Assembly (NCBI GenBank): GCA_964016885.1 | Contig: OZ024741.1 | Location: forward strand, 2,294,001-2,358,000 | DNA from: Eledone cirrhosa | Lineage: Eukaryota | Reading direction: 5' to 3' | DNA: 64,000 bases | Shown here: in pieces, positions 2,211 through 55,507 of the stretch | How positions within the stretch are numbered: position 1 is the first letter of the stretch | Layout: the number at the start of each line of letters is the position of its first letter | Translations under genes and position numbers: made by a program | Notes under the pieces: generated by a model | The model's database searches: none | What the model saw: only the letters and a program-made list of their open reading frames with translations | What the model was told of the DNA's origin: nothing

Positions 2211-2400
2211 GGAACCAGTAAGACCCCGACAGCTGAGCTCAAGCCGTTTCGACGGCTAATTCTGGGTCCAGAATTAGCCGTCGAAACGGCTTGAGCTCAG
2301 CTGTCGGGGTCTTACTGGTTCCTATTACCCACTCTACTACCTCAAGTATTGAGTACTTTGGTGCGTTATGGTCCACCTGGTTCCTTACCACATTTCCTTC
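2211..2400 (+). mobile_element. Short palindromic PLE-pLTR element, family A
   Basis: Inverted arms of about 55 bp centred near 2266, an 80-nt tail, and (TA)n on both flanks. Contains a hammerhead 3' half, GAAA-CGGC..GCTG-TC-GGGGTC (2283-2311), and TTGAGTACTT (2349-2358). Confidence 0.85.
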
Positions 2401-2684
2401 ATTATATATATATATATATTAAGATAAGCAGAACAAGCAAAATTTATCCAATTTTTTAAAATAAATTAAAAAATAATCATAGGCAACCTATATATTTCCA
2501 GGAGTACTTAGTACCCGTGGGCATATTAACTTCTTATATATATATATATATATATATATATATATAATAAAGAAGAAATTAAAAGATGGTTAAAAGAGTT
2601 CCATATATTTTATTATGCGCATTTCGAATACATAAATATACATACATATCAAATATATAAGAACCGTAGAGCAAATATTTTGTT

Positions 2685-2735
2685 AGTTTCAGAAGATCCT
2701 GTTAAGGGTGAAAGCAGCGATTCTTTGCTTAAACT
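2685..2735 (+). ncRNA. Type I hammerhead ribozyme, U4A core variant
   Basis: AGTTT-CAGAAGA-stem II-GAAA-GCA..TGC-TT-AAACT. Stem I pairs AGTTT/AAACT and stem III pairs AGCA/TGCT. Confidence 0.65.
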
Positions 2736-3156
2736 TTAATCTGTTATTTTAATAAATATATATATATATATATATATATATATATATATATATATATATA
2801 TATAAGATTCAATTTTATCATACATTTACAATCACACTCTGATATATAGATATATATATGTATGCATGTTTTTAACATATTGTGTGTGTGTGTGTGTCTA
2901 ATGAGAAGAAGAAATGTATTTTCATAATAAAGTAATTAGAATGTGTTATTAACAACGTTATTGAAATTTGATGGTTTCTATAAGAAACTCTAAAAGATCT
3001 TAGAAACTTTCTTTGCCCCTTATCTGCCATTGCTTTTACAATTAAAAATTAAAGAATGATCGATATTCGATATTGTTATGTCAATCAACGTAAAATTTAA
3101 ATCATTAATCATTATTATCATTATTATTATTATTATTATTATTGTTGTTGTTATTC

Positions 3157-3282
3157 CTTGAATCTCAGTCATTGATGTTGGTTAACTGGAAAGTCCGTTG
3201 GATTGAATATCAAGCCACTACCTGCAGCCTCAGATATTCAGGACGTATCGGAGGGTTCTTGCTGTTCCAAGCAAGCATGCCT
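3157..3282 (-). mobile_element. 3' end of an R4/Dong-like non-LTR retrotransposon in (TAA)n
   Basis: Minus strand reads KACLLGTARTLRYVLNI*, homologous to KIVLMGTAHILRKILSI* of the neighbouring element. Flanked by (TTA)n on both sides. Confidence 0.75.
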
Positions 3283-3356
3283 TTATTATTATTATTATTA
3301 TTATTATTATTATTATTATTATTATTATTATTATTATTATTATTATTATTATTATA

Positions 3357-4358
3357 GTTGCATTTATCTTGCTTTATGTTCATACGAGTTATCACCAAGT
3401 CACAACCAGTGACCTCAAGAGACAACAAGGTCCGCCATGTTCAAGAAAGAACATACATATTCACACATGCATCTTTAGTGTTTAGACTTGTGACGTACTT
3501 ATATTGACAGAATCTTCCTTAGTATATGGGCAGTTCCCATTAGTACTATCTTTTGTATTTCTCCTATACGCGGGTTTCCTGGGATTTGCGATATGTAATC
3601 ATTAGACCCCTTAGATATCATTCCCAGAGCGCCTACAACCACTGGTATTGTTTTAGTTCTCAATTTCCACATTTTTCCAATTTCTATCTCCAGGTCCTTA
3701 TACTTGCTCAATTTTTCAAATGTTTTTATAGATACATTCTTGTCTATTGGAACAGACATATCAATTAGCAGGCATACCCTCTTTTGAAAGTCCTTCAATA
3801 TTATATCAGGTCTATTTGCATCTATTTTTCGGTCTGTTTGGATGCTAAAGTTCCACAAGATTGCGATGTGATCTTTTTCAAGTATGGGAGGTGGTTGATG
3901 CTCCCACCAATTCTTTTGATGGGGCAGGTCAAAATGCTTACACATTATCCAATGTATGTATTGTGCAGCTCTGTCATGCCTGTTTAGGTATTCGGTTGGA
4001 GCTATAGGACTGCACATTGAAATTATATGGTCAATGGTCTCTGGTTGTTTTTTGCATACACGGCATAATGGGCTGCACCCATTTTTTATTATGTTGGCTT
4101 GGTAATTTTTGTTGGCAGACACTGATCTTGTGCTGATATAATCAGTCCTTCAGTCTCCGATTTCTGTCCAGAGGATGCCAACCACTGATGGGTTAAAGTT
4201 TTGTCAACATCAGGATTGTTAGCTCGCTCTGGGTATTTTCCATACAGAGGCTTTTCTTGCCATTTCTTAGCCAGTTTCTGTAGCAGTTCTTTCTTTGCAG
4301 TTACTTTTACCTGCTTTGCTTTTTCTGTGTTTTCCATTTCAGCAGTAAATGGGACTTC
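3357..4358 (-). pseudogene. 5'-truncated R4/Dong-like non-LTR element (CCHC knuckle plus restriction-like endonuclease)
   Basis: ORF pieces 4089-4337 and 3499-4122 are joined by a frameshift near 4110. Motifs: ETEGLIISAQDQ, CRVC..ETIDHIISMC, RHD, RPDI..LIDMSVP, K..KYKDL, IPVVVGALG. Embedded in (TAA)n. Confidence 0.9.
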
Positions 4359-52400: not shown

Positions 52401-52758
52401 CCAATAAAATAAGGGGTTAGAAAATAGAGAAATTAACAAGATATCTCGAAAGGGTTCTGCCGTAAATATGTGTTTGTGTATGTGTGTATGTGTAGACATT
52501 TTTAATCCTTCATTTTTGTTAATATTTTGTTTGTGTTTTGTTGATCTTCGATATATTTGTTGTTGTTTTATTGTTGTTGTTTTATATTTTTTATGAAGAC
52601 ATCAGAATAATTTAAAGGAAGAATTATTCGACAAAATAAATATACAAATAGATATATAAATATATAAATATATAAATATAAATATATAAATGTATAAATG
52701 TATATATAAATATATAAATCGTTTAGAGAGTTTTTTTATATCGATGTTTTGACGGGCA

Positions 52759-52879
52759 TCCACTGATGAGTTATAAGTGCCCACCTGCATATATTCCTAC
52801 GGAATGTGTGCAGGCTTCTACATAACCCGGACACATTCTCCCAACTTGTAGAAAACTTATAATGAAACAATTGTTTGGA
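52759..52879 (+). ncRNA. Hammerhead with branched stem II
   Basis: TCCA-CTGATGA-GTTATAAG-[two hairpins]-CTTATAAT-GAAA-CAATTG-TT-TGGA. Confidence 0.8.
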
Positions 52880-53740
52880 AATAGAGATATATTTTAATTA
52901 TGACTCATATAAAATAATACAACTGGCCTTCCGAAAAATACATATAGTAAGCACCCTAAACGCAAAATTGGGATTATACTAAGGTATATCCTAATGTTTG
53001 TTGAGTGAGATGGAAGCCAGTCAGAGTAATAGCTTAAAGCTTTCTCTGTTAATGTATTATATATATATATATATATATATATATATATATATATAAATAT
53101 ATAGATAGGTAGATAAATATATAAATATATAAATATATAAATAAATATATTAATGTATAAATATATATATATATATATATATATATATATATATATATAT
53201 ATATATATATATATATATATATATATATATATATAGAGAGAGAGAGAGAGAGAGAGAGAAATGATAAACAAGTAAATAAATGTAGAAAAATAAATATATA
53301 AATAAATAAGAATAAAAACGTCAACTTAAAAAGTCAAAGTAAAAAATAACTGGTGCCAAAAAAAAAAAGAAGTTAAAATTAATGATAAAAAATATAACAA
53401 AGAAAACATTTTTTTCAAATAACGGGAAAAGTAAAACAAAAGAACAAGAAAGAAACCAAAACAAGAAGCGGTGTCAGCGTTAAATCTTGTTAAAACATCG
53501 TTTTGTGAGGATGAACTAATTAAGGGAGATAATCCTGGAAAGGAAAAAATAGGGGGGGGGGGCGAATGAAAAAAAGACGAACAATGATAATAAAAACGAC
53601 AGAGGGAGAGAAATAAGAGTTTATTGCTAAATACAGAAATATTTTCAAAATTAAATGTAATGTTAAACACACACGTGCATATGCACGTGTGCGCCTAACA
53701 TTACATTTTGTTATGTCAATATTTATAAAACAAACTTTGC

Positions 53741-53799
53741 ATTTTATCTGATGAGGGCGTACCAAAGTGTTGGTATCCTTGAAATATATATAATAGAAT
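53741..53799 (+). ncRNA. Minimal type I hammerhead ribozyme
   Basis: ATTTTAT-CTGATGA-GGGCGTACCAA..TTGGTATCCTT-GAAA-TATATA-TA-ATAGAAT. Tail motif TCGAATGCTT at 53868-53877. Confidence 0.82.
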
Positions 53800-55142
53800 A
53801 AATATGGTTTTATAAATATAGTTTCCATTTATTTAATATCATTGAATATTATACTCCAGAAAACTTGTCGAATGCTTTGAATCAGTTATAAACATTTATA
53901 TTTGTTGAATTACCAACAAATTAAATATCCCTTTTGCTTATATATATATATATATATATATATATATATATATATATATATATATATATATATATATATA
54001 TACATGTATGTTTAACATTACATATATATATATATATATATAAGAGTATAAAATGGAAAACGAAGAATCAGTGATGCATCACTGATTCTTCGTTTTCCAT
54101 TTTATCATACTCTGCTCCGAAGGAGCATAGAGTGCTCAACCGGCATACCTCCTATGGACGCATCCAAGCAACCATACCACACACACACACACACACACAT
54201 ATATATATATATATATATATATATATATATATATATATACATGCACTTAAATATAACCACACACATACATATATATATATATGTATATATATATATATAT
54301 GTATGTATGCCTATATCCACATGTCTATACACACACACACACACACACACACACATATATATATATATATATATATATATATATATATATATAAATATAT
54401 ACACATCTATATATATATATAAATATATATATATGTATGTGTGTGTGTGTGTGTGTTTTTAAGCATGTTTGGGGGAAGGGTTAAAAATAAAAATATATAT
54501 AAAGAAAAATAAGAGGAAAAAATAAGTACGGAAAATGTAAGGCAATAAATAACTTTAATAAATAAATAAATGTTGAAAAGAGCGTAAGAAAGGGCTTTAG
54601 CTAAGAAACAGCAAGTTATGTAGCTGGAGGCCATTGATAAAGATATCTCTCTTGACTTGTTTGCTGGGCTTCATCGAAATCTAAATACATTTCCATATTT
54701 AGACTAGTGGATTATATGTATATATTTATATATATATATATATATTATATGTGTGTATATATATATATATATATATATATATATATATATATATATATAT
54801 GTGTGTGTTTAAAATAGCGTAGTATTTAAAACATTCAAACATTAACTAATTGAGTACTCAATACTGATGAGTAGAGTGTAGAAATATATTTCCAAAAAGA
54901 AAAATGACAGTGACTTTGAAGTTTCAGCTTGATAGCTTCAGCTGTCTATTTATCTATCTACACACACACACACACGCACGCACACACACACACACACACA
55001 CACACACACACACACACACACACACACACACACACACACACACACACACACACATATATATATATATCAAATCAACTTTTTAAATGGAAGTTGAAGTTGT
55101 AAGGTATGTCAAATCTATCTATTTATAAGACTGTTTATATTG

Positions 55143-55208
55143 TATTTTGTCTGATGAAGGCATACCATATTTTTAATATGATATCCCTGAAATATATATA
55201 ATGAAATA
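55143..55208 (+). ncRNA. Minimal type I hammerhead ribozyme (paralogue of 53741)
   Basis: TATTTTGT-CTGATGA-AGG..CCT-GAAA-TATATA-TA-ATGAAATA. Tail motif TTGAGTGCTT at 55271-55280. Confidence 0.8.
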
Positions 55209-55507
55209 AATATGGTTTTATAAATATAGTTTCCATTTATTTAATATCGTAAATATACTCCAAATACTTGTTGAGTGCTTTTATATCAGTTATAAATATT
55301 TACTCGTTGTAACCCAACAATTTAAATAAAACTTTGCATTAAGTAAACAATAGAGACAGCACAGTAACTCAGGTACCCCACCAATCTTGAACCACCCTGC
55401 GCTTCTAGGGCACACAGGGAGAGCGCCCCTATCCTCAAATAGAGCACTCTTCTATAATAATAATGGGAAAATAAATAAATATCGGCGAAGTATTTGTTTT
55501 GTAACAG

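Follow-up and report, generated by a model that had tools for sequence, protein, structure and literature searches.

The window described here, a 64,000-nt stretch of the Eledone cirrhosa genome (assembly GCA_964016885.1, contig OZ024741.1, positions 2,294,001 to 2,358,000 of the forward strand; positions below count from its first nucleotide), is set in a 3.0-Gb genome rich in (TA)n runs and Penelope-like elements (PLEs). It contains a near full-length PLE copy with a long open reading frame (ORF), pieces of others, and many short PLE ends (Table 1), at several of which a preliminary description had noticed a near-palindromic motif, TNGAGTRCTY, close to the (TA)n junction. As read from the DNA, this motif is the 3′ strand of a predicted bulged RNA hairpin, RCUC-[variable stem-loop]-UN-GAGY-RCU, in PLEs of the Hydra clade. 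The 5′ strand (RCTC), a second copy of the hairpin, and the restriction to this clade all go beyond the preliminary description.

Hydra-Clade Elements and the Motif at Their Ends

The Hydra clade, as defined in PMC8557442 (this and the other papers cited by number are reported from the parts accessible to us), is marked by an N-terminal RWK, DKT in place of DKG, a CxCx5C linker, no CCHH, a C-terminal GIY-YIG, a hammerhead core in the pseudo-long terminal repeat (pLTR), and a (TA)n target. By these diagnostic motifs the window elements would belong to it: the long window ORF has RWK and ADKT, and that of the most abundant family (the 2349 family; families are named here by window sites) has RLRWR and SDKTG. 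R40 and W41 are kept in 59 of 61 aligned relatives and D121-K122 in all 61. Both window ORFs, and those of a further locus (L469), have the CxCx5C linker; none has CCHH, and a single cysteine lies between the GIY and YIG halves. A hammerhead core pattern is found ~75-100 nt 5′ of the first hairpin in many metagenome loci, and (by eye) before the window sites 53868 and 55271 as well; no hammerhead model was among the Rfam rows listed, these being the best 150 of 271 for the window together with those for five full-length loci. In a structure model (mean pLDDT 91), the conserved RxRWK is part of a long helix, and a low-confidence coil adjoins the conserved basic residues at 494-498. Pfam returned no family for the 812-aa frame at E ≤ 0.1, sequence searches found no relative among solved structures or viral contigs, and contigs of two other runs had the pLTR part only. 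For the 5880, 17750, 18494, 19027, and 54852 families no link to an ORF was made.

The 2349 family also occurs as a head-to-tail array with a 3.54-kb period and open ORFs of 717-719 aa (L469, G000:C1:91476000-91485999); the commonest short repeat of the window is therefore the end of a young autonomous family.

All 13 of the 10-mers originally listed are present at their reported positions and strands, but the consensus TNGAGTRCTY describes just seven of them, the sites at 9868, 17750, 20337, 28706, 53868, and 49201 departing from it. The proposed enrichment near element ends holds up: the genome was sampled in 80 evenly spaced 10-kb stretches, and of the 80 strict matches in them 43 have a (TA)n run 40-69 nt to the 3′ side. 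The same holds for 2.6% of background positions, and 2 of the 80 matches have a run at that distance in the opposite direction. For 200 letter-permuted motifs, counted at distances of 30-69 nt, the mean was 0.8, and the highest-scoring one (20 of 36) is the motif itself offset by one letter. The elements concerned are not the unrelated ones they had been taken for, however: 53868 and 55271 are members of one family (80% over 197 nt), as are 33411 and 54128 (83% over 103 nt), 49201 is kin to 2349 (77% over 67 nt), and all six ORF-linked families, of approximately 10 in the window, are Hydra-clade PLEs. Nor is there a common distance of 35-60 nt from motif to microsatellite. It is specific to the family, ranging from 34 to 99 nt over 12 families, a spread which rules out a fixed ruler between the two, and site 55271 has no (TA)n after it at all. 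The distance that is nearly constant runs instead from the junction to the next hairpin, mostly 3-5 nt.

A Bulged Hairpin, Twice in the Leader

To define tails without the motif, we took the stretch from the mirror point of the inverted arm to the next (TA)n. This gave 135 two-armed structures, 88 of them with a tail of 30-220 nt, and 33 tail families after a low-complexity filter; the motif does lie, as had been suggested, within the tail omitted from the inverted arm. Twelve of the 33 families have RCTC 2-9 nt past the end of the arm; it pairs with the motif's GAGY, and a variable upper stem lies above a two-base bulge beginning with U. Counting first members only, eight of 33 families match, compared with a mean of 0.1 (maximum 1) in 300 shuffles. 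The outer core pair is A-U in nine of the 12 families of this genome and G-C in three.

Metagenomes provided a separate set: a profile of 61 Hydra proteins identified 77 loci in 55 families, of which 48 loci (31 families) include at least 150 nt before the ORF. Sequence anchors alone selected 51 instances in the 150 nt before the ORF in these 31 families (two in 17 families, one in eight, three in three, and none in three), so that at least one hairpin is found in 28 and at least two in 20; 200 shuffles gave a mean of 2.2 and a maximum of 8, and the ORF interior gave 1. Upper-stem positions played no part in this selection, and the first three are Watson-Crick in 45, 31, and 28 of the 51 instances, vs. 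26.8, 14.6, and 13.1 with shuffled partners (p = 2e-4 each). RNAalifold predicts the bulged hairpin for two gap-free sets of seven sequences, with double-sided changes in four of eight pairs in each, and four of seven test sequences take it as their lowest-energy fold when folded singly. When positions were freed one at a time, the bulge U was kept in 45 of 46 cases, the purine preceding it in 45 of 45, the C-G pair in 44 of 46, and the U-A pair in 45 of 45, while the second bulge base varied. The outer core pair is G-C in 43 of 47 instances and the 3′ flank reads ACU in 45 of 47; in 20 families a distance of 55-82 nt separates the two copies. The reverse-complement control (18 instances) is not independent, as the hairpin is self-complementary. 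By eye, the hairpin is present in three of six published Hydra consensus sequences, Hydra-2_Amil from a coral and Hydra-2_Ajap and Hydra-1_Ajap from a sea cucumber, the last of these having two copies at its 5′ end.

Two other structural readings were rejected. A pseudoknot at the 2349 site was abandoned once a simple bulged hairpin suited the other families (by eye, then by folding), and a likeness to the tRNA T-loop or Pol III B-box, also seen by eye, had no support from covariation. For the window, the best 150 of 271 rows from Rfam covariance models were below threshold, and most of them were miRNA models falling on microsatellites or fold-backs; the five full-length loci had no match at E ≤ 1.

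Against a wider role stands the fact that 21 of the 33 tail families lack the full descriptor, although four of these are near matches, one with a double core-stem change (32733-32760); the hairpin is therefore not a general PLE signal. The DKG-type family in the window has no such hairpin in its 39-40 nt tail (five of five copies). Six hairpin 9-mers gave three listed matches outside Hydra sequences, none of them at an element end by context, although line breaks may hide matches. The DKG-type (Neptune-like) family (34833-38746 and L389-L412) is itself young: over the part searched, identity is 98-100% among at least 150 copies. It carries a long open extension upstream, and its 3′ untranslated region (UTR) exceeds 1.4 kb; read-through of the 40-nt tail was not found in any copy, and 48 matches beyond the tail had no shared continuation. 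Several short-tail families of unassigned clade (tails of ~40-65 nt; L031-L110) have other small hairpins near the start of the tail, seen by eye, which may be a different signal in the same position. Stem III of many Hydra hammerheads is also ACTC/GAGT, the core letters of the tail hairpin (PMC8557442 File S2; L111, L113, L118, L165), but differs in other families, and no shared role is evident.

If a hairpin marks each end, a second one should follow the tail in full-length copies, and we searched for it with queries made of the tail end, a short gap, and RCTC. For the 2349 family there were 411 matches, against none for the control. The loci examined run into a second hairpin 6 nt past the tail, and most of them then enter the start of the Hydra ORF (719 aa). 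The 53868/55271 family has the second hairpin in 12 of 12 loci, and the 33411/54128 family has it in three clear and two degenerate cases out of 12; both families lead on to a Hydra ORF. The prediction was thus borne out for three of the four Hydra-type window families tried; the fourth (28706) is taken up below. In four more families of this genome the 5′ UTR contains the two hairpins as well, although in some of them the upper stems are weak or the flanks differ. Full-length elements thus have two hairpins in tandem in their 5′ UTRs, 55-172 nt apart, which bound tails of 68-181 nt in this genome. The PLE tail, in other words, is the spacing between the hairpins, and copy 2 is left out of the inserted ends.

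Junctions with (TA)n agree with this arrangement. Five families of this genome gave 155 of them, and 153 fall in the 10 nt upstream of a hairpin, 126 at a distance of 3-5 nt; the TA at the junction is common to element and target. Of the TA dinucleotides of reference stretches, 24 of 167 fall within the same zone. For one family (F193) the outcome depended on the mapping, exact matching giving no hairpin-2 ends and alignment giving 15. Among 16 metagenome junctions, a set which excludes contig ends and tandem read-throughs, 10 are 2-7 nt before a hairpin and one is at 12 nt. Of the 37 two-armed insertions in the same five families for which the two outward ends could be seen, 36 use one hairpin per end, where 50% would be expected if the ends were independent (p = 3e-10).

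Table 1. Hairpins and PLE features in the window, in window coordinates.
Feature	Position	Strand	Remarks
80-nt tail between end sites of hairpins 1 and 2	2323..2402	+	(TA)n from 2403
Inverted and direct arm, 2349 insertion	2211..2322	.	Inverted arm stops 5′ of hairpin 1
Hairpin 1, most abundant Hydra family (2349)	2331..2358	+	ACTC / 4-bp upper stem / TT bulge / GAGT-ACTT; linked to 719-aa Hydra ORF and hairpin 2
Hairpin 1, 42-nt loop	5880..5943	-	Family not linked to ORF
Hairpin 1, G-C outer pair (GCTC/GAGC)	9828..9877	+	Two adjacent upper-stem pairs only; family follows Hydra ORF in L071
Hairpin 1, 2349 family	11087..11114	-	
Hairpin 1, 2349 family	11301..11328	+	
Hairpin 1, weak 3-pair upper stem	17750..17772	-	Family not linked to ORF
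Hairpin 1, 2349 family	18212..18239	-	
Hairpin 1	18494..18523	-	Strict scan; family not linked to ORF
Hairpin 1, 6-pair upper stem, TC bulge	19027..19070	-	Family not linked to ORF
Hairpin 1, 64-nt loop	20263..20346	+	Mirror copy 20465-20548 (-) lies at 3′ end of Hydra element with broken ORF 21948-23805
Broken Hydra-type reverse transcriptase (RT) and endonuclease ORF pieces	21948..23805	-	53% identical to RT of ORF 46752-49154; CxCx5C linker
Hairpin 1, 2349 family	25167..25194	+	
Hairpin 1, 2349 family	26794..26821	-	
Variant hairpin 1, single-U bulge	28706..28729	-	Sole read-through copy reaches Hydra ORF; its hairpin 2 lacks 3′ strand
Hairpin 1, double core-stem change (GTTC/GAAC)	32733..32760	+	Not in preliminary description
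Hairpin 1, TG bulge	33392..33420	+	Family with hairpin 2 and Hydra ORF
40-nt tail, DKG-type (Neptune-like) PLE; contrast case without hairpin	34833..34872	-	ORF pieces 35428-37254 (+)
Hairpin 1, GCTC/GAGC, no RCT flank	43435..43468	-	Not in preliminary description
Hairpin 1, 2349 family	45628..45655	-	
Hydra-clade PLE copy	45853..49158	-	800-codon ORF 46752-49154 (RWK, DKT, CxCx5C, no CCHH); 3′ end at hairpin-1 site, no tail
Tail and mini inverted arm, 2349-related subfamily	49159..49270	-	Joined directly to ORF start; site 49201 with broken 5′ strand
Hairpin 1, one C-A mismatch (mutated copy)	53853..53877	+	Same family as 55271
Hairpin 1, 6-pair upper stem, TA bulge	54109..54137	+	Same family as 33411
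Hairpin 1	54852..54877	-	Not in preliminary description; family not linked to ORF
Hairpin 1	55257..55280	+	Family with hairpin 2 and Hydra ORF

Some window features deserve separate mention. The motif at 49201 had been placed 46 nt upstream of the ATG of the full-length PLE, but the flank there is not this family's 5′ UTR, and none of 29 other copies of the ORF has it; it is the tail of a 2349-related subfamily fused to the ORF start, with a broken hairpin. The stretch 45853-49270 (minus strand) is thus one insertion made from two Hydra families, in which the 5′ end of the near full-length copy meets the normal 3′ end of the 2349-related tail with no (TA)n between them. It looks like a template jump onto the hairpin-2 start site of another family, which would mean cross-family recognition, in one case. 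The short 2349-family insertions (2211-2322, 18248-18359, 25038-25158, 26830-26952, 45664-45773) have nearly equal arms of 55-70 nt, and their fold centre is just 5′ of the hammerhead GAAA, apparently not at the cut site. An 890-nt near-perfect palindrome around a (TA)15 run (19961-20850) consists of two facing tail-bearing ends of the same Hydra family. Long tandem arrays with stop-free frames at 41355-42865 and 14325-14982 (units of ~10 nt and 50 nt) are unrelated to the hairpin.

Possible Origins of the Paired Ends

Each hairpin probably binds the element's RT and sets an internal cDNA start just upstream of itself. The endonuclease would cut the (TA)n target. One target end would pair with the UA immediately before hairpin 2, and its extension through hairpin 1 would yield the tail-bearing arm; the other would pair with the UA immediately before hairpin 1 and yield the inverted arm, which has no tail. 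Each cDNA would stop independently of the other, and the two would then be joined head to head (twin priming). Hairpin 2 would stay 3′ of the start and not be copied, and for this reason short copies would show a single motif ~35-100 nt from the microsatellite.

More speculatively, a protein dimer might grip both hairpins of one RNA, and an arginine might read the purine-U-N-G-A bulge in the manner of the arginine sandwich of TAR and 7SK (see below). The RxRWK helix (residues 38-42 of P0003) or the basic, poorly ordered linker (R/K at 494, 496, and 498) might supply such a reader. The full form of this proposal, a programmed twin-priming cassette in which two TAR-like hairpins dock the subunits of an RT-endonuclease dimer, each priming one strand of the (TA)n break a few letters 5′, is advanced tentatively, as possible but somewhat doubtful.

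Several observations weigh against RT positioning by the hairpins, or against parts of it. Binding, priming, and the strand that folds are all deduced from DNA; G-U outnumbers A-C in the upper stem by just 9 to 7, and does not identify the folding strand. Three of the seven test sequences (2349, 19027, and 54852) fold otherwise on their own, and z-scores are weak. Because the core stem and the 3′ RCU hardly vary among the metagenome instances, they yield little covariation, and the partner-shuffling test of the upper stem ignores relatedness among families. Families HydA, F193, F198, and F200 have other 3′ flanks; of the published consensus sequences (by eye), Hydra-1_Crog is a near match, while in Hydra-1_Amil and Hydra-1_Obim the hairpin is weak or absent. 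The 28706 family yielded one read-through copy in 12 loci, with the 3′ strand of its hairpin 2 missing. Four of the five families used for junction mapping were retrieved by queries that stop shortly before hairpin 1, which would make ends further upstream invisible there, and five of the 16 metagenome junctions are far from a hairpin or have none after them. Finally, the arginine-sandwich idea leaves the invariant RCU unexplained.

Among other explanations, RNA processing would account for the same junction positions: cleavage of the RNA immediately upstream of each hairpin would leave new 3′ ends, near which target-primed reverse transcription of the ordinary kind would begin. RNA-seq read ends have been noted at the start sites of the Anolis element studied in PMC11167929, as this would predict, but in the same work reverse transcription began internally on unprocessed RNA and needed sequence 3′ of the start. 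Processing alone would leave unexplained the presence of one end of each kind in 36 of 37 insertions, and no Rfam ribozyme family was found at the hairpin sites among the rows listed; we consider it unlikely. Self-priming, in which hairpin 2 would be the sole start and the cDNA would fold back, copy itself, and halt at hairpin 1, is a model of the type argued in PMC3846280 from palindromes at inverted junctions. Palindromic centres are common, and the arms are approximately equal in 15 of the 37 two-armed insertions. The tail-less arm reaches further 5′ in 11, however, and so holds sequence missing from the tail arm, which in turn is the longer in another 11 and is shorter than the tail itself in three. 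In general, therefore, the tail-less arm is not a fold-back copy of the tail arm; the long Hydra copy of the window, moreover, ends at the hairpin-1 site with no same-family arm from hairpin 2. Self-priming is largely refuted for asymmetric insertions and may apply to symmetric short ones, but as an account of the whole it is very improbable.

The near-palindrome GAGYRCUC might instead pair between copies, forming an RNA dimer or a long-range helix between hairpins. The flank ACU, kept as described above, would pair with the GAG of the other copy, but in most metagenome families the centre is C-A and so mismatched, only 33 of 51 instances retain the last C, several families here have no such flank, and the covariation belongs to the competing hairpin; there seems little chance that this is the explanation. 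The preliminary description had suggested a shared cis-signal at PLE ends, which might be an RT-binding or priming determinant, a core promoter or initiator, or an endonuclease site. The first of these fits. The others, in which the motif would act as double-stranded DNA, can call on its nearly invariant core letters, on the TATA/Inr-like sequences of pLTRs (PMC3846280), and on earlier work, cited in PMC11167929, in which plasmid cutting by the Drosophila Penelope endonuclease required the tail. They are nevertheless unsupported, because the conserved unit is a base-paired hairpin with half-motifs 6-70 nt apart, the arms of which vary in sequence yet stay paired, and because the hairpin copy that marks the outer end lies outside the inserted DNA and is absent from the (TA)n target too; the apparent link to an ATG at 49201 is that of a chimera. 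A duplex-DNA signal is accordingly about as improbable a reading as any considered here.

Comparison With Known Systems

The nearest experimental comparison is with the Poseidon PLE of Anolis (PMC11167929), for which reverse transcription in vitro starts at two internal sites that bound the tail. Both strands of an AT-rich target are extended, a dimer is predicted, and RNA is needed to +172 although the start is reached by +118, i.e., ~55 nt 3′ of the last start. Hydra PLEs share the AT-rich target, and would share the two start sites with the tail between them, the extension of both target strands, the need for RNA 3′ of the start, and the dimer. Poseidon differs in that initiation is in an AC-rich stem-loop, with a binding motif within the first 172 nt of the ORF; the accessible text names no conserved element as fixing the two sites, and the printed template (by eye) has no RCUC/UN-GAGY hairpin. 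The account of the Hydra clade in PMC8557442 has the (TA)n target, the inverted 5′-truncated arm, and the optional tail in common with the elements described here, but gives tails of 30-40 bp with hammerheads and, in the part accessible, no tail motif, whereas the tails here are longer and set by hairpins.

In the arginine sandwich of HIV-1 TAR and 7SK stem-loop 1 (PMC6189040), a paired purine is followed by a bulged U and variable bases, and then by G-C and A-U pairs; in TAR, U23 caps A27-U38, with A22 as the base. The bulge of the Hydra hairpin has the corresponding sequence features (a purine, a bulged U, and C-G and U-A pairs). It differs in that the loop closes the other stem and in its conserved RCU flank, and no common ancestry is implied. 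The TAR stem in full reads GAGC/GCUC. Stringent long interspersed elements (LINEs) and their short interspersed partners (SINEs) have a short RNA hairpin near the priming site which likely gives the RT its template specificity; these 3′ stem-loops are 5′ of the priming site and are copied. The stringent-LINE stem-loop is single, unlike Hydra hairpin 2, which is one of a pair, 3′ of the end, and uncopied. Hepadnavirus epsilon and telomerase RNA likewise use a bulged or structured element to place an RT on an internal template, although epsilon directs protein priming and the template copied by telomerase is a short repeat. The RTs of PLEs form the sister group to those of telomerase.

Hydra PLEs, their tails, and internal initiation were already known; what appears to be new is a stem-loop of putative RT-recognition type 3′ of the start, in duplicate. 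As the preliminary description had supposed, the accessible literature on PLE tails and motifs gave no account of the motif, of this hairpin, or of a paired end signal, although Repbase, Lunse et al. 2017, and the supplementary figures of PMC11167929 could hold a mention. The accessible parts of PMC7229834, PMC4209133, PMC3846280, PMC5737381, and a retrozyme preprint (10.64898/2026.07.22.740005) describe no such hairpin.

The choice of two start sites by PLEs, and the origin of the tail and inverted arm, had been open questions, and the in vitro study left the RNA determinant unmapped (PMC11167929). For the Hydra clade the paired hairpins would supply it, in an element of 25-30 nt kept from a coral and a sea cucumber to the present genome, for which exact predictions can be made at single bases. 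The hairpin is also a marker for the ends of Hydra families and, being shared, a possible basis for cross-mobilisation among them. The twin-priming cassette, if true, would explain the PLE tail and the inverted arm in one step; it would also mean that the sister group of telomerase has a template-positioning element which lies to the 3′ side of the copied RNA and is not part of it. If this is right, it could inform the design of templates for RNA-guided gene insertion, with the recognition element outside the copied sequence.

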